This document shows, piece by piece, positions 10,513 through 51,652 of a stretch of 64,000 nucleotides of DNA. A program made the position numbers and the translations under genes. The notes under the pieces are model-generated. The model worked only from the letters and a program-made list of their open reading frames with translations, was not told the DNA's origin and did no database searches. Numbering within the stretch: the stretch's first letter is position 1; each line of letters starts with the position of its first letter. The DNA is from a virus (Duplodnaviria > Heunggongvirae > Uroviricota > Caudoviricetes). The stretch lies in the IMG/VR virus record IMGVR_UViG_2563366960_000002. The stretch is one strand, 5' to 3'.

Positions 10513-13659
<3,147 letters not shown>

Positions 13660-13660
13660 G

Positions 13661-13689
13661 AAAAGCCCGGCGATCGGGCTTTTCTTTTA
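13661..13689. terminator. bidirectional intrinsic terminator (AAGCCCG-N5-CGGGCTT with flanking A and T runs)
   Basis: Direct read between convergent genes. Confidence 0.65.
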
Positions 13690-13704
13690 TAATGGGTTCA
13701 ATTT

Positions 13705-14679
13705 TTATCCGTTACCGCACGACGGTTTCTGCGTGATAAACGTTTCAAGCATCTTTTCCGCGATTGCCGACCAGGTGTGACACTGGACCTTTTCAGCATT
13801 TTTCAGGCGATCAACGCGAGCAATCACCTCATCCCAATCAATCCGCGACTTGATAACCATATGGTTCACCAAAGCCAGGCGATCTGGCGGAAGGCAATCG
13901 GACGGCGTTAATATCAACGCCCCACACATTGCCGCCTCAAGAACAGTTAATCCAAGGCTTTCGGGATGCGTAACGATAAAAACGTCACTCTTACGCAATT
14001 CAGCTGCAAATTCGGTTGCTGGTACCGGCGTCCGTCTGTATGGAGTTACCGAAATATTCCCCGGATCAATGGTAACCAATCCGTCATCGGTCAACGTTCT
14101 GGCCTCATACGGAACAGTCAGACGCTGAAGGTTCATAAGGATACTTAAGGAGTGATCAAACCCACTAACATCAAATGCAGCGTGGTCTACAAAAATACGC
14201 AGAACATCGTCTGTTTTGGTTTCCAGATGGAACAGCTCCTGATTCGCTGCCCATCCAACATGTTTGTTAAAGCGATTATGACGCTCTAACCTGCCGGGAT
14301 TATCCAGGTACCGCCAGGTATCATCGCGGACAGTAAAAGTAATATCAACTGGTGCCGAATCCAGCATAGAACCGTCGTATACCTGAGCTACCCATCCAGT
14401 GAATCGACGACGCAGTTGCACGCCTATTTCCCTGGGCACCGTAGTAAAATACCGCAATCCTGGCGCTAAAATGGCTTTCGCAGAACACGAGAGCGCAGCG
14501 GTCAACACAGCTTCAACATAATCCTCCGGGCTTTCGACGCCGGGAGAATATGGACGATGGTATTGCAATGTTACCCCAGCCTCACTAAAGGCGCAGGCCA
14601 GGTTGTAAGCCCACATTTCCGTATATGTTTTCACATCACTGATAGCTTCAAATTTTCGCCCAATGATCAGGATGTTCAT
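13705..14679 (-). CDS. GT-B-fold glycosyltransferase-like protein
   Basis: 324-aa ORF; HPESLGLTVLEAAMCGALIL resembles the GT4 E-x7-E region. Confidence 0.5.
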   Translation of the reverse strand: MNILIIGRKFEAISDVKTYTEMWAYNLACAFSEAGVTLQYHRPYSPGVESPEDYVEAVLTAALSCSAKAILAPGLRYFTTVPREIGVQLRRRFTGWVAQVYDGSMLDSAPVDITFTVRDDTWRYLDNPGRLERHNRFNKHVGWAANQELFHLETKTDDVLRIFVDHAAFDVSGFDHSLSILMNLQRLTVPYEARTLTDDGLVTIDPGNISVTPYRRTPVPATEFAAELRKSDVFIVTHPESLGLTVLEAAMCGALILTPSDCLPPDRLALVNHMVIKSRIDWDEVIARVDRLKNAEKVQCHTWSAIAEKMLETFITQKPSCGNG

Positions 14680-14981
14680 TGCGTCTCCTTTTCCCTGACT
14701 AAAAGCTCATCCAGCTTGCTTTTATGTTTGAGCACATAGCCACATATTTTTCCTTTGGAGCTAATTTGCGGAATGGAATAATATTCCGAAAATACTAATT
14801 CAGCCTTTTCTAAGACAAGTGAAACACCATAGCGCGCAACATGTCTGTCGATCATTTTTGCATCTCTGAGATTACCTTTAATTGATAGCCAGTCGTTGAG
14901 GTACATATGGTTGCGATTGGCTTTTTTCAGCATGTCGCTCAACCAATTTTTATTACGCTTAGTTAGTTTCCGTTGCATCAA
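14676..14981 (-). CDS. hypothetical small protein
   Basis: 101-aa ORF translationally coupled between ban and the glycosyltransferase. Confidence 0.4.
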   Translation of the reverse strand: MMQRKLTKRNKNWLSDMLKKANRNHMYLNDWLSIKGNLRDAKMIDRHVARYGVSLVLEKAELVFSEYYSIPQISSKGKICGYVLKHKSKLDELLVREKETQ

Positions 14982-16342
14982 TAATCCTCTTGCCAGTCAG
15001 CACCAGCATAGTTATCAAACCGTGAGTATTGGCCGTTAAAAGCCAATCTCACCGTGCCAATTGGGCCATTTCGTTGCTTACCGATAATCACCTCGGCAAT
15101 GCCCTTCATTTCGCTATCCGGGTGATAAACTTCGTCGCGATACAGAAACATGATCAGGTCTGCGTCCTGCTCAATTGCTCCTGATTCACGTAAATCTGAA
15201 TTTACCGGACGTTTGTCCGCACGCTGTTCAAGCGATCGATTAAGTTGTGACAATGCCACCACCGGTACTTGTAATTCCTTCGCCAACGCCTTCAGTGAGC
15301 GAGAAATCTCGGCAATTTCCAGCGTTCGGTTATCTTGCAGCTCGGGGACGCGCATAAGTTGCAGGTAGTCGATCATAATCATGCTCAAACCACCATTTTC
15401 TTTATAAACACGACGAGCGCGGGAACGTAGCTCTGTCGGCGTCAGGGCGCTTGAGTCATCAATAAAAATATTCTGCTTGTCCAACAGAATCCCCATTGCG
15501 CCAGAAACCCGCGCCCAATCCTCGTCGTTAAGTTGCCCTGTTCGAATACGAGTCTGATCAACGCGTGCAAGAGAAGCCAGTGAGCGCATCATCAGCTGGT
15601 GGCTCGGCATCTCAAGGCTAAAAACCAATACGGGCTTATCGTTACGGACTGCGGCATTTTCGACGAGATTCATCGCAAACGTAGTCTTCCCCATCGATGG
15701 GCGGGCGGCGACAATAATGAGATCGGACGCCTGAAGTCCTGCCGTCTTCTTATTGAGATCGGTAAATCCGGTATCAAGCCCCGTTACACCATCATGCGGT
15801 CGCTGAAACAACTCTTCTATGCGAGATACCGTTGCATCGAGAATGCTGGCGATATCTTTTGGACCACTACCGCTCTTTTGTCGTTTTTCAGCTATTTCAA
15901 AAACGCGGCGCTCGGCCATATCCAGCAATTCATTGCTGCCCCTGCCATCCTGCGCATATCCAGCTTCGGCTATTTCATTTGCGACGGAAATCATTTCACG
16001 AACAACCGCGCGTTCACGAACGATATCCGCATAAGCACAAATATTTGCCGCGCTGGGCGTGTTCTTTGACATCTCCGCAAGGTACGCAAAACCACCGGCG
16101 CGTTCTAATTTACCGTTCTGTTCAAGTGCTTCAGCAAGTGTTATCAAATCAATCGGTTTGCCATGACTTAATAACCTCTCCATCTCACTGAAAATTTCAC
16201 GATGAGCACTGGTATAAAAATCATCAGCAACTATACGATCTGCAACTTCATCCCAGCGGCAGTTATCAAGCATTAAGCCACCAAGTACAGCTTGTTCTGC
16301 ACTAAGGGAATTTGGCATGGATTCAAGAGGGGATGCAGACAT
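14978..16342 (-). CDS. ban: DnaB-family replicative helicase (P1 Ban-like)
   Basis: N-terminal AEQAVLGGLMLD, Walker A ARPSMGKTTFAMN, Walker B IMIDYLQL; start set at ATG 16342 after GGTGGAG RBS (track ORF begins at GTG 16348). Confidence 0.85.
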   Translation of the reverse strand: MSASPLESMPNSLSAEQAVLGGLMLDNCRWDEVADRIVADDFYTSAHREIFSEMERLLSHGKPIDLITLAEALEQNGKLERAGGFAYLAEMSKNTPSAANICAYADIVRERAVVREMISVANEIAEAGYAQDGRGSNELLDMAERRVFEIAEKRQKSGSGPKDIASILDATVSRIEELFQRPHDGVTGLDTGFTDLNKKTAGLQASDLIIVAARPSMGKTTFAMNLVENAAVRNDKPVLVFSLEMPSHQLMMRSLASLARVDQTRIRTGQLNDEDWARVSGAMGILLDKQNIFIDDSSALTPTELRSRARRVYKENGGLSMIMIDYLQLMRVPELQDNRTLEIAEISRSLKALAKELQVPVVALSQLNRSLEQRADKRPVNSDLRESGAIEQDADLIMFLYRDEVYHPDSEMKGIAEVIIGKQRNGPIGTVRLAFNGQYSRFDNYAGADWQEDY

Positions 16343-16627
16343 TAGCACTCCACCCAGGCGTGCTGAATGTCAGATATAATCGGCATACTCAAATCACTCC
16401 TAACGATATGAGTCATCACCAGAAAATCAGGATTAATGCGCCGGACTCTTCCCGGCTGTCACACCGAATCGCCAGGATGGTGAGTCCCTGTATCCGCTAT
16501 CCCTCCAACGGTGACTTGCACATTCCGGCTACCTGGTTTGTTGCCTGAGCTAGGGGAAAAGGTAACCCCTTTAACGTCACCAGACCGCTAACGACGCATG
16601 TGCCAGACGCCGTGTTACAACCAAATA

Positions 16628-16703
16628 TGGTGGCCCCTACCGGACTTGAACCGGTGACCGTGCGATTATGAGTCGCCAGCTCTAACCACTGAGCTAAAGG
16701 GCC
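16628..16703 (-). tRNA. tRNA-Ile (anticodon CAU, ileX-like)
   Basis: Cloverleaf read by eye: acceptor GGCCCTT/AGGGGCC, D-arm GCTC-AGTGGTTA-GAGC, anticodon loop CTCATAA, T-loop TTCAAGT, encoded CCA; near-identical to E. coli ileX as recalled. Confidence 0.8.
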
Positions 16704-16730
16704 GGATTACTGCCAATTTTGCTTACGCTT

Positions 16731-17558
16731 TTATTTCACCGGAACAAACGGAACAGCGGCATTACTGGTCATATACTGCGGTAATGTACCGTTCCATTTG
16801 TTGATCGCTTCCAACTCCATAACACCGGGGTTCTGGCGCAGAGCTTCACCACGTAAACGAATGGCATCAGCTTCGGCCTGGGCTTTTGTGCGAATAGCAT
16901 CAGCCTGTCCGGCAGCTTCCGCGCGCAGCATGTTGGCCTCTGCTTCACGTTGTTTGACCTCTTGCTCGCGTTGCAGGGTTTTTTGGTTTGCCGTAACTTT
17001 GGCGTTAATACTGTCAATAACTGTTGGCGGATATTCTGGCTTACCTACATAAGAGAGGCTCATCACCTGAATGCCGATTGGCGTCATTTCTTCCTGAATG
17101 TCTTTAAGGGCTGCATCAAGCAATTCAGATTTGCCACCGTCGATAAATTTGTCGGTGGTCATTTTGCTGGCTAACCGGTTCAGAGCATCTGCAACCTTCT
17201 GGCGTAGATCGGTATCAGTAATATCATCTACACCTTTGCGATAGGTCTGAAATACCGTTGTGACTTTTGCTGGATCAACCTTGTAGGCTACGCCGATGTG
17301 GTAACCAATGGTTGTTCCGTCGCTCATCTGGAAGCTGAACGGCTCATCGTATGTCTTCATTTGCTTAAAGGTCGGGAAGATATAAACTTCAGTATTCAAG
17401 CCTGTCCAGTAGCGACCAACACCAACTACTTCACCGATACCTTTATCATCCCCCAGCTTATTTACTTTGATCCCTACGTTACCTGGCTCTACCCGATCGC
17501 ATCCGGTCAGACATAAAGAACCCAAAATAATCGCTGCACTAATCAACGTTTTTTTCAT
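16731..17558 (-). CDS. plp: SPFH/band-7 domain lipoprotein (P1 Plp-like)
   Basis: 275-aa ORF; signal peptide with lipobox LTGC; band-7 core and C-terminal coiled coil. Confidence 0.65.
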   Translation of the reverse strand: MKKTLISAAIILGSLCLTGCDRVEPGNVGIKVNKLGDDKGIGEVVGVGRYWTGLNTEVYIFPTFKQMKTYDEPFSFQMSDGTTIGYHIGVAYKVDPAKVTTVFQTYRKGVDDITDTDLRQKVADALNRLASKMTTDKFIDGGKSELLDAALKDIQEEMTPIGIQVMSLSYVGKPEYPPTVIDSINAKVTANQKTLQREQEVKQREAEANMLRAEAAGQADAIRTKAQAEADAIRLRGEALRQNPGVMELEAINKWNGTLPQYMTSNAAVPFVPVK

Positions 17559-17775
17559 TAATTAATTTCCTGGTTTTTTCACGAAAAAAGACTACTGCGA
17601 AAGCCGGGTAAATGAGCGCGAGAAGGACTCCCAACAATACAAGTATTGTGCTGTTAGATGAGATCATATTTGGCAAAAGCCAAACATACAGAACCAGTGA
17701 CACAATCAAACAGAGGACGGCATAAATATATAACCGCACCCATAGCGTTCGACATTTGTTCGGATTGTTCTGCAT
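17539..17775 (-). CDS. small membrane protein (P1 Upl-like)
   Basis: 78-aa ORF with two hydrophobic helices, overlaps plp start. Confidence 0.5.
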   Translation of the reverse strand: MQNNPNKCRTLWVRLYIYAVLCLIVSLVLYVWLLPNMISSNSTILVLLGVLLALIYPAFAVVFFREKTRKLINEKNVD

Positions 17776-17931
17776 CCTCTCACTCCATTATTTAACGAAT
17801 AAAAAAGCTGCGGTGCCGGGTACCTCCCGGTGTCCTTTGGCTGGTTATCCACCGTGGACGGGGAAACAAGGAGAAATGAATGGACTGATATAACCATTTC
17901 CCCGCGTGCGCTTAGCCGCATTCACCGCAAT

Positions 17932-18031
17932 GGTAAGAGCACTTGGCTGGCTGGGCGGCGATGACGCCTGTATGCATTTGGTGATCCGGTTCTGCTTCCG
18001 GCATTCGCTTAATTAGCCAAATACTCTTAAC
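17932..18031 (-). repeat. GGTAAGAGCA-initiated structured element directly 3' of tRNA-Ser (imperfect partner TACTCTTAAC)
   Basis: Direct read; shares terminal motif with elements at 18497 and 19038. Confidence 0.3.
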
Positions 18032-18038
18032 GTTGCGC

Positions 18039-18125
18039 TGGCGGAGAGTAATGGAATCGAACCATCATCGCTTGCGCTATGGGACGGTTTTCAAGACCGC
18101 TTGAGCACCATGCTCCCTACTCTCC
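18039..18125 (-). tRNA. tRNA-Ser (anticodon UGA), class II with long variable arm
   Basis: Acceptor GGAGAGT/ACTCTCC, anticodon arm GCGGT-CTTGAAA-ACCGT, T-loop TTCGATT, encoded CCA; D-arm spacing non-canonical, needs covariance-model check. Confidence 0.65.
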
Positions 18126-18259
18126 CGTTATTGTGGCGACCGGTGCTGATCTCCGGCTTGCGGTTATTTCAGACTCTCACGGGCGTTTAATTGCCCCGCC
18201 GAACAGCTCTTTTCCGCAATAGCTGCAATGTCTTTCGCGCATCAGCCTGCGCATTCACC

Positions 18260-18350
18260 ACAACGTTGAGAACACTGGTTGTCACGCGCAACGCAACATT
18301 TATTCGTAGATTGGGATATGACCCCGTTACGCCAGTGTTCTCAACGTTGT
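18260..18350. repeat. perfect 19-bp inverted repeat ACAACGTTGAGAACACTGG / CCAGTGTTCTCAACGTTGT around a 53-nt spacer
   Basis: Direct read, arms 18260..18278 and 18332..18350. Confidence 0.7.
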
Positions 18351-18496
18351 AGTGCCGGTTACGGTTCCGGCCAGGCCTCTTCCTCAACGGGGTGTTCTCC
18401 ATACGGACTACCGTTTATTGGTCGTTCCTGCGGTTTATGTTGTGAAGCCAGATGCTTATCTTCTGGTTGCTTCAAAGAGCTGCACTTCATCACAAC

Positions 18497-18570
18497 GGTA
18501 AGAGCATTTATGGCTCGCATCGCGGGAAAAAGCCCACGGTAGAGAGTCGAACTCTACAAATGCTCTTACC
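18497..18570 (-). repeat. tRNA-sized palindromic element (13-bp terminal stem GGTAAGAGCATTT/AAATGCTCTTACC, internal T-arm-like hairpin) directly 3' of tRNA-Thr
   Basis: Direct read; no full cloverleaf could be drawn. Confidence 0.45.
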
Positions 18571-18578
18571 TGTTGTGT

Positions 18579-18654
18579 TGGTGCCGGTTAACGGGATCGA
18601 ACCGCTGACCATTCGCTTACAAAGCGACTGCTCTACCAACTGAGCTAAACCGGC
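18579..18654 (-). tRNA. tRNA-Thr (anticodon UGU)
   Basis: Acceptor GCCGGTT/AACCGGC, D-arm GCTC-AGTTGGTA-GAGC, anticodon loop TTTGTAA, T-loop TTCGATC, encoded CCA. Confidence 0.8.
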
Positions 18655-18658
18655 AATT

Positions 18659-18745
18659 TGGTGGGGAGTGATGGAGTCGAACCACCCGAGTCGCAATGAC
18701 AGTAGATTTACAGTCTACCCCGCTACCCCTACGGACTAACTCCCC
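18659..18745 (-). tRNA. tRNA-Tyr (anticodon GUA), class II
   Basis: Anticodon arm GTAGA-CTGTAAA-TCTAC and variable arm nearly identical to E. coli tRNA-Tyr as recalled; acceptor GGGGAGT/ACTCCCC; D-arm spacing irregular. Confidence 0.65.
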
Positions 18746-18750
18746 TAAAT

Positions 18751-18827
18751 TGGCGATGGTGGGTGGATTCGAACCACCGACCGACAGCTTAGAAGGCTGC
18801 TGCTCTATCCTACTGAGCTACACCATC
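18751..18827 (-). tRNA. tRNA-Arg (anticodon UCU)
   Basis: Acceptor GATGGTG/CACCATC, D-arm GCTC-AGTAGGATA-GAGC, anticodon arm GCAGC-CTTCTAA-GCTGT, T-arm GGTGG-TTCGAAT-CCACC, encoded CCA. Confidence 0.8.
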
Positions 18828-19037
18828 ACTTGCCGGGTACGTCTCCGGCGAGGGCTTCCACCTCCGTATGCTTTTCGGCGCACCGCGCCCTGGCTGCAAT
18901 TCGGTAACAGGGGATGCACAACCCTGGCTTCCAACGTGATTAGCGCCTTCAGCATGACGGGATATACCCGTAGTAGGACGTTATCTTCAAATTGCTAAAA
19001 GCAATTGCTGTTACGCAGAATGAAAAAGGACGTAACA

Positions 19038-19105
19038 GGTAAGGACGCTGACCAAAAAGATGGCCCCTTCTCGCTCATCTGGTTAATCGAACCAGCGCCC
19101 TTACC
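19038..19105. repeat. palindromic element GGTAAGGACGC...GCGCCCTTACC with internal CTGG-TTAATCGAA-CCAG hairpin
   Basis: Direct read; terminal motif shared with 18497..18570. Confidence 0.4.
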
Positions 19106-19496
19106 TGTTGTGCCTCCCCGTTCCCTAATACACAGACGGGGACACTCTGCGGTCGATTTTTTGACGGGGGACGACTCATACCCCGTGGCGTCTGGCTTCT
19201 TAGGCCGCTACCATCATCAGATCATCGTTTGCATTTACTTTAATGGTCAGTTTCTAAACCGCCGCAAAGTCGCTAACCATGACGAAAACCCTGAAAAAAA
19301 CGCCCACCCGAAGATGGGCAAACTGGAAGCTCGTAACGCACTTCGGTGTTGCCACTTAGGCGTATGGTCAACCTGGCAACTCGGCGTCATGATGGGGAAG
19401 GAGTCACTACCCCGCCATACTTGCCGCCGCGCCTGTCGCGGCTAACAGCTAAATCGCTCTATAAATCACGATTCATTGATGCGATATTACACTAAT

Positions 19497-19513
19497 AAAT
19501 TTATTAGAGCAAT
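19497..19513 (-). promoter_or_regulatory. C1-type operator, perfect 17/17 ATTGCTCTAATAAATTT, overlapping the last codons and stop of dmt
   Basis: Direct read; -35-like TTGCTC inside, TAATAT 17 bp downstream on minus strand; a degenerate inverted site follows at 19451..19469. Confidence 0.7.
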
Positions 19514-41170: not shown

Positions 41171-41187
41171 AAAATAATTAGAGCAAT
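41171..41187 (-). promoter_or_regulatory. C1-type operator variant (ATTGCTCTAATTATTTT on minus strand), 15/17, at the immunity-region promoter
   Basis: Direct read. Confidence 0.55.
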
Positions 41188-50816: not shown

Positions 50817-51652
50817 TGCAGCGTTCCTGGTTTAATAACCGGCTTACATCAGCTAAGCAAAAGTCATTGCTCTATAAATCATTGGCTGATTTGGTTCAGT
50901 CAATGATGGACACCTTTGTTGACCCATGGTTGGAGCGAATTACCAACCGGAAGTCTATTTTCTCCATGAGCAAGGAGGATCTGGAGACCAGGACAAATGA
51001 ACTTGGCCAGTTCTTTACTATCAGAACCTCGAACTCATCTTCCGTTCCGATGTTGTTACAACAGCGGCTTGATGAGATCCACTTTAAGGGAACTGAACGC
51101 CCTATAAACCAGACAATTTACCGCGAATTTAACGGTATTTCTGTTTTATGGGATCCGATATATGCACCGGTGGACCTTGAGCGTCATCCCTATGGCACGG
51201 TTCTAATACCAGAAAGCACACTGGAGACTACCGGCGGCACATTCGGCGAGATGTTTCTGACTTCCAGAGGGATGATCAGTATTCCCATAAACGACCTGGC
51301 CCGGACAATGGGGATTACTGGCACGATAGATCAGTCCGCAATTACAGAAGAAATTCTCAGAAAGTTTAATCAGTTCGTAAAGCCTCTACTGCCACTGCAT
51401 ATAGTGTTTGATGGGCTTACGCTCTATTTGTCGGTTGTTGTAAATGAACAGGCCGACATGATCACTTTGAACGAGATTTCTGATACCGAAAAAGCGTACT
51501 GCTGGTTTGAAACTTCGGATACAACTTCGCTTACTGGAGTTACGTCGATTAGCGCTCCGATCACTGCAACGCCGGGAGGCACTATTGTGAAAGCAACGCC
51601 TACGTTTGATCGCACCCGCGCAGATGATTTGCTGCTGGATAGCGATGCCTGA
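50813..51652 (+). CDS. baseplate/tail protein
   Basis: 279-aa ORF coupled to previous gene. Confidence 0.4.
   Translation: MMQRSWFNNRLTSAKQKSLLYKSLADLVQSMMDTFVDPWLERITNRKSIFSMSKEDLETRTNELGQFFTIRTSNSSSVPMLLQQRLDEIHFKGTERPINQTIYREFNGISVLWDPIYAPVDLERHPYGTVLIPESTLETTGGTFGEMFLTSRGMISIPINDLARTMGITGTIDQSAITEEILRKFNQFVKPLLPLHIVFDGLTLYLSVVVNEQADMITLNEISDTEKAYCWFETSDTTSLTGVTSISAPITATPGGTIVKATPTFDRTRADDLLLDSDA

Follow-up and report, generated by a model that had tools for sequence, protein, structure and literature searches.

The DNA analysed here is a stretch of 64,000 nucleotides, referred to as the window, and the site of interest lies where the dmt gene ends and a group of tRNA and protein-coding genes leading to ban begins. 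The 5-kb stretch around this site has 96-98% identity with the P1-group phages P1, P7, RCS47, JL22, and vB_EcoM-Ro157c2YLVW, from which we conclude that the window is a P1-like (Punavirus) plasmid prophage. Identity to P1 across the operator region is 97.5%, and the window is oriented in reverse to the P1 reference. The dmt gene (19504-21768, minus strand), recognised from the list of open reading frames, comparison with P1, and a domain search, is predicted to encode a bifunctional DNA methyltransferase with D12 N6-adenine and C5-cytosine methylase domains and 98.4% identity to P1 Dmt. Further upstream is Odmt (former Op68; 23019-23035, minus strand), the C1 operator of the uhr-hrdC-dmt operon, which was located by pattern search and from the P1 record. 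We found no terminator-like site on the minus strand at 19514-19700, between dmt and the ban promoter. Because dmt ends inside the operator described below with no terminator before it, transcripts of the Op68-controlled dmt operon must also enter the Pban region.

Beyond the end of dmt, the minus strand carries tRNA-Arg(TCT) (18751-18827), tRNA-Tyr(GTA) (18659-18745), and tRNA-Thr(TGT) (18579-18654), all three found with a tRNA search and with Rfam. They are followed by tRNA-Ser(TGA) (18039-18125, minus strand), predicted by ARAGORN and matched by the Rfam tRNA clan, where the best model was tRNA-Sec at a score below the cut-off. This is an atypical long-arm tRNA, and in the record of phage D6 tRNAscan-SE assigns no amino acid to its equivalent. 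Two cargo genes come next on the same strand and stand in place of tciABC of P1. One is a 78-aa ORF (17539-17775) with no Pfam match and the other (16731-17558) is predicted to encode an SPFH/Band-7 protein 275 aa long (PF01145, E = 9.7e-31) with an N-terminal lipoprotein-like signal. A tRNA with a CAT anticodon (16628-16703, minus strand), which is trnI, tRNA-Ile2, in P1, is located directly upstream of ban (14978-16348, minus strand). The latter gene is predicted to encode a DnaB-type replicative helicase with DnaB and DnaB_C domains and 99.6% identity to P1 Ban. It lies approximately 3.1 kb downstream of the operator, and ban and the five intervening tRNAs are all on the minus strand. The distal genes of the unit, also on the minus strand, are a 101-aa ORF (14676-14981) with no Pfam match and the glycosyltransferase-like dbn (13705-14679). 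In P1, ban and dbn abut, and in the window the 101-aa ORF is inserted at this point.

An earlier note on this DNA had described a tRNA-upl-plp-ban unit transcribed from a C1-controlled promoter far upstream. What it proposed for the tRNAs and ban is in line with the annotation of P1 and P7 and with the gene layout in 51/51 related loci (see below). The place it gave to upl and plp did not hold. With tblastn there was no match to upl in the window, and plp was present as a frameshifted remnant on the plus strand (18232-18605). Wherever upl and plp occur, in P1 and the related loci alike, they are on the strand opposite to ban.

The operator consensus recognised by C1, ATTGCTCTAATAAATTT, is quoted in PMC8546580 together with a ternary complex that includes the co-repressor Lxc. 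A pattern search matched this consensus at 17/17 positions once in the whole window, at 19497-19513 on the minus strand, as the earlier note had reported. We refer to this C1 half-site by its P1 name, Obana (former Op72a). It contains the -35 hexamer of the ban promoter and, again as reported before, overlaps the final codons and stop of dmt. The end of dmt on the minus strand reads ...ATA TTG CTC TAA TAAATTT, and Obana spans 1 nt of the Ile codon, the two Leu codons, and the stop codon, which account for 10 of its 17 bases. A second half-site, Obanb (former Op72b; 19486-19502, plus strand), is inverted relative to Obana. Its sequence, ATTACACTAATAAATTT, matches the consensus at 15/17 positions (2 mismatches), shares 6 bp with Obana (19497-19502), and extends 4 nt into the -10 hexamer. 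Together, Obana and Obanb form an imperfect 28-bp palindrome in which the 14-nt halves differ at 2 positions. The C1 operators of P1 share an asymmetric 17-bp consensus from which known sites depart by 0-4 mismatches. The region at 19486-19513 combines a consensus match of this kind with overlap of a sigma-70 promoter and orthology to a named operator. Having two inverted, overlapping 17-bp sites that form an incomplete palindrome, it is of the bivalent Op72ab type.

Nine sites in the window matched the consensus with at most 3 mismatches where 0.46 were expected, and 0/100 shuffles reached nine. The earlier note had proposed a scan with a position weight matrix (PWM) as a check of its operators. 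We derived such a matrix from the other seven operators in the window, leaving out the two ban sites. Both overlapping ban sites scored as operators, with 27.6 bits for Obana and 20.4 bits for Obanb; the degenerate site at 19451-19469 that the earlier note had put forward as a second operator fell far below. All nine sites with at most 3 mismatches scored at least 20.4 bits, and Op83 (7912-7928), the tenth mapped operator, scored 15.9 bits. Apart from these ten mapped operators, the top score in the window was 12.9 bits. The remaining operator matches are the named P1 operators Op88, Op86a/b, Op82, Op83, Op68, Op53, and Op51, and the context of these other operators is mostly near-identical to P1.

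The two promoter hexamers are on the minus strand at positions orthologous to those of the sigma-70 promoter P1ban of P1. The -35 hexamer TTGCTC (19507-19512) is inside Obana and is separated by a spacer of 17 bp from the -10 hexamer TAATAT (19484-19489), which coincides with the annotated minus_10_signal of P1. The earlier note had pointed to this TTGCTC as -35-like and to TAATAT 17 bp downstream, and these are exactly the P1ban hexamers annotated in P1. It had also suggested promoter prediction as a check; a generic promoter scan did not report P1ban, which is a poor consensus promoter (7/12). From spacing alone, the start of transcription is predicted at the A at approximately 19477 (or at 19480) rather than near 19490 as had been proposed. 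The view that no operator adjoins ban was borne out, since the interval from 19486 to 16349 contains no C1 site with at most 3 mismatches and nothing that scores above 11 bits on the PWM. We looked for the P1 late-promoter box from the leader terminator described below to ban and found none, and a lenient sigma-70 scan of the same interval found weak 8/12 matches only. Because P1ban itself matches at only 7/12 positions, such sigma-70 scans are weak evidence and leave room for other promoters.

This operator is already known. It is the textbook P1 Op72/Oban, annotated in P1 and P7, which is found here in a P1-like genome with different cargo. In the P1 record (AF234172), 68667-68683 is annotated as 'monovalent C1-controlled operator Obana... 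former Op72a' and 68678-68694 as 'Obanb... former Op72b'. The pair is annotated as 'divalent C1-controlled operator Obanab', former Op72ab, that 'controls expression of ban'. The same record places the -35 of 'sigma 70 promoter P1ban' at 68668-68673, its -10 at 68691-68696, and the end of the dmt coding sequence at 68676; P1ban is listed as a 'sigma 70 promoter' and P2ban as 'predicted'. When the offset between the two sequences is applied, these annotated positions fall exactly on 19497-19513, 19486-19502, TTGCTC, and TAATAT. In the P7 record (AF503408) the same pair is Op(ban[a])/Op(ban[b]) at 70972-70999, which 'controls expression of trnRNA, ...'. The window, P1, P7, and Ro157c2YLVW all have the same 28-mer.

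The window shares with P1 the same 28 bp, hexamers, spacing, and overlap with the dmt stop, the same leader and terminator downstream of the operator, and ban on the same strand. It differs from P1 in having a leader module that is P7-type and not P1-type in the middle helix. Between promoter and ban, P1 has tRNA-Asn/Thr and tciABC, whereas the window has tRNA-Arg/Tyr/Thr/Ser, the 78-aa ORF, and the SPFH gene; in addition, the window has no upl, a degraded plp, and the additional 101-aa ORF between ban and dbn. The closest leader type is that of P7, where the operator is identical and 19290-19640 is 98.3% identical, but P7 differs in its cargo of terB/tci and tRNA-Asn/Thr(/Ser) and in having its methylase gene annotated as dam. 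Other C1 operator/promoter pairs, such as Odmt/Op68 on Pdmt and OrepL/Op53 on PkilA, are all present in the window. These two resemble Oban in their 17-bp asymmetric consensus, overlap with a sigma-70 promoter, and membership of the same regulon. They differ in being monovalent, whereas in Oban two inverted, overlapping sites lie across the whole core promoter.

That C1 binds at this locus, that the promoter is active, and that ban is controlled from it are taken from annotation or literature. Binding of C1 to Op72 of P1 is known from the literature. The ban gene has been treated as a C1-controlled gene that is induced in the lytic cycle (PMC4713147). Using tblastn with a partial C1 (184 aa, from a related plasmid), we found no c1 match in the 64-kb window; in P1, c1 lies approximately 25 kb beyond what corresponds to the low-coordinate edge of the window. 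With c1 outside the window, the check on the cognate repressor was made in a relative, the plasmid pAVS0578-B, which encodes a 'phage repressor protein C1'.

We examined how well the operator is conserved in related loci. An exact search for the 28-mer in IMG/VR returned 89 contigs. To avoid circularity, loci were also chosen by a 35-nt anchor in the leader and not by the operator (90 IMG/VR contigs). In the anchor-selected loci with enough upstream DNA, the exact 28-mer was present in 84/91 and differed by one base in the other 7/91. By comparison, in these loci the dmt codons directly upstream of the 28-mer were highly polymorphic and the few bases between the -10 hexamer and the anchor were strongly polymorphic. 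The operator region is also carried by approximately 470 PLSDB plasmids, mostly Escherichia plasmids of the IncY-type and P1-like. Where a locus contained both the operator and ban, the order was always operator, leader/terminator, 0-3 tRNAs, cargo, tRNA(CAT), and ban on one strand (51/51), with 2.3-3.4 kb between operator and ban. The plasmid pAVS0578-B is 100% identical to the window over 19290-19640 (351 nt) and only 90-97% identical and mosaic relative to the window elsewhere.

The contents of the unit varied across these 51 loci. The tRNA set contained Asn or Arg and, in some loci, Tyr, Thr, or Ser as well. As protein cargo, loci had either tciABC or the 78-aa ORF with the SPFH/Band-7 protein. 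The combination of Arg-Tyr-Thr-Ser with SPFH was seen in the window and in only one other locus (L006).

The region directly downstream of the promoter is predicted to be transcribed as a structured leader RNA. All of its elements are on the minus strand. At 19450-19475 there is a predicted 5' leader hairpin with an 8-bp stem (-7 kcal/mol), followed at 19344-19441 by a conserved module of approximately 100 nt in which folding and alignment predict three helices. The predicted fold of the module has 23 pairs, and 2 of these have compensatory changes among the six sequences that were available. A short, very conserved RNA segment (19294-19339) follows at the position that DicF takes in lambdoid phages, within the 'dicF-like region' of P1, and ends in an intrinsic terminator. 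The terminator has a stem at 19320-19301 (7-8 bp), a UUCG tetraloop, and a U7 tract at 19300-19294, with a predicted energy of -12.8 kcal/mol. It lies about 160-180 nt downstream of the predicted start, and the exact hairpin is present in 50/51 loci. Across 92 loci the least polymorphic part of the leader was the 46 nt ending in the terminator, a part that was unused in selecting the loci. The presence of a strong terminator between the promoter and the tRNAs means that expression of the tRNAs and ban needs read-through. Given this terminator, the sequence does not make continuous transcription from Pban to ban evident. A further stretch of approximately 467 nt (18828-19293, minus strand) separates the leader terminator from the first tRNA, and in it we found no convincing ORF or RNA-family match.

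The leader module has relatives outside the P1 group. The stretch from 19441 to 19344 has 82% identity over 100 nt to the sequence immediately 5' to dicF in the Qin prophage (L003, 663-759), and the module also occurs in the lambdoid phages mEp460, cdtI, and Stx2a/PPompW between ydfC-like genes and dicF/dicB. The homology with the lambdoid loci stops before dicF, and the 3' RNA of the window is unrelated in sequence to DicF. Which RNA follows the module depends on the phage group: it is DicF in Qin, mEp460, and the Stx phages, whereas cdtI and the P1-like phages each have a different one. A search of 13500-20000 with Rfam (E <= 0.1) returned tRNAs, a sub-threshold STnc100-like match, and chance matches; it returned no DicF (RF00039) and nothing on the leader. 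Thus, the window resembles the dicBF operon of Qin and the lambdoid phages in having a homologous module of approximately 100 nt directly 5' of a short terminated RNA, protein-coding genes beyond the terminator, and control by a phage repressor. It differs in that the short RNA is unlike DicF in sequence, that the module comes immediately after the promoter and not after ydfABC, and that tRNAs and a helicase gene, not dicB, lie downstream. The segment at 19294-19339 could act as an sRNA of the phage on targets of its own. In RNAduplex comparisons against shuffles, the leader 3' RNA gave z = +0.6 on the ftsZ translation start, and the DicF positive control was also non-significant (z = -1.3).

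Read-through has a precedent in Qin, where dicB lies past the terminator of DicF and is nevertheless expressed from the same upstream promoter (PMC5069750). We considered an HK022 put-like antiterminator as the source of read-through and found no support for it, since the leader has no significant similarity to the early region of HK022; an analogy in structure alone may exist.

We interpret 19486-19513 as the bivalent C1 operator of the P1 ban operon (Obanab) superimposed on the sigma-70 promoter P1ban, and we regard this as very probable. The palindrome reaches from just upstream of the -35 hexamer into the -10 hexamer. In the plasmid prophage, C1 bound to both sites and aided by its co-repressor Lxc/Bof would exclude RNA polymerase. 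Once C1 is inactivated, transcription would begin at approximately 19477 on the minus strand, and the first product would be a leader of approximately 180 nt made up of the 5' hairpin, the 100-nt module, the short conserved segment, and the UUCG-loop terminator. Polymerases that read through would go on to transcribe tRNA-Arg, -Tyr, and -Thr, tRNA-Ser, the 78-aa ORF, the SPFH gene, tRNA(CAT), ban, the 101-aa ORF, and dbn. In this scheme, we infer where transcription starts, that polymerases pass the terminator, and how far the transcript extends.

That the match has no regulatory role and arose by chance or as a by-product of dmt coding is suggested by the ten bases it shares with dmt codons and stop and by its AT-rich surroundings. 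However, the expected number of perfect 17-mers is far below one, and the window has the excess of near-matches given above. The match is also paired with an inverted second site on top of promoter hexamers, is orthologous to an annotated, named operator, and is nearly invariant where the adjacent dmt codons vary freely, so that a chance origin is extremely improbable. The earlier note had a different partner in mind for the perfect operator, which under that reading would cooperate with a degenerate inverted operator downstream of the promoter at 19451-19469. This segment does hold GCTCTA and TAAAT, is invariant in P1, P7, and Ro157c2YLVW, and ranks 43rd of approximately 128,000 17-mers by PWM. 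Even in its best ungapped register (19453-19469, plus strand) it has 7/17 mismatches, and approximately 590 17-mers in the window are as good or better (at most 7 mismatches); aligning the segment to the consensus needs a 1-nt deletion. Its score is 5.8 bits compared with 15.9 bits for Op83 and at least 20.4 bits for the other nine mapped operators, and it has no annotation in P1 or P7. A near-identical look-alike at 50866-50882, one base shorter than 19453-19469, lies inside an ORF and was judged to be a chance match. The segment forms one arm and the loop of the predicted 5' leader hairpin, and its invariance is common to the whole leader. With the real partner of Obana at 19486-19502, which had been overlooked, we consider cooperation with 19451-19469 very improbable: this segment is not an operator but part of the 5' leader hairpin that folding predicts.

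A more serious alternative accepts the operator and promoter and concerns what is made from them. The main product could be a terminated RNA of approximately 180 nt, a precursor of a DicF-type sRNA, with the tRNAs and ban transcribed mostly from another promoter or by a small fraction of polymerases that read through. The retention of the strong terminator in all but one of the 51 loci and the low polymorphism of the 46 nt that end in it argue for this idea, as does the homology of the module to the sequence flanking dicF on its 5' side, at a locus that produces a terminated small RNA (PMC5069750). It is also consistent with a report that, after lytic induction of P1, ban was induced less than the gene ref, above which the same paper ranks ssb, dmt, and kilA (PMC4713147). 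On the other hand, the annotation of P1 and P7 gives this operator control of ban and the tRNAs, and between terminator and ban there is no other C1 site, late box, or convincing sigma-70 promoter. Expression of dicB past the dicF terminator from the same promoter in Qin (PMC5069750) also argues against it. Partial termination is compatible with both this alternative and a repressor-controlled ban operon, and we think it rather unlikely that the terminated RNA is the main product with the downstream genes served mostly in another way.

A related proposal, which we put forward tentatively and consider possible but still less probable than not, is that the terminated leader of approximately 180 nt is the first and perhaps the main product and is processed to an sRNA of approximately 50 nt that is analogous to DicF with different targeting. 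The module would then be a portable sRNA platform with interchangeable 3' cassettes, and the level of the helicase and tRNAs would be set by regulated read-through. If this is true, only the modular platform and the attenuation would be new, as the P1 annotators had already flagged a 'dicF-like region'.

The operator itself is unchanged in hundreds of P1-like plasmids and has little weight as a discovery. Its value lies in annotation, where it marks the window as a P1-type plasmid prophage and fixes the start of the ban operon. The ban operon can be viewed as a variable cargo slot, filled with different tRNA sets and with tciABC or SPFH, whose repressor-controlled promoter and leader are invariant. 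Of the whole region, the conserved, terminated 'dicF-like' leader alone might be worth experimental work.

Several minor features of the window were also observed. The counterpart of Oc4/Op51 at 41171-41187 (minus strand) is present, but its context is just 27/57 identical to P1, which suggests that the immI region may differ in type from that of P1 and is possibly P7-like. Between tRNA-Ser and the 78-aa ORF, 17809-17929 (minus strand) gave the sub-threshold Rfam match to STnc100 (35 bits versus a cut-off of 47, E = 6e-5). STnc100 is a gammaproteobacterial sRNA. The stretch 18749-19322, which takes in the approximately 467 nt before the first tRNA, is 89.8% identical to the divergent phage D6. 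D6 has no C1-consensus site within 5 kb of this shared terminator-to-tRNA stretch, but its upstream region is unrelated, so this absence says little about the operator of the window. In the GenBank record of D6 (L005, 4373-5078), the tRNAs are on the strand opposite to that implied by the alignment with the window and P1, which is probably a strand error in the record.
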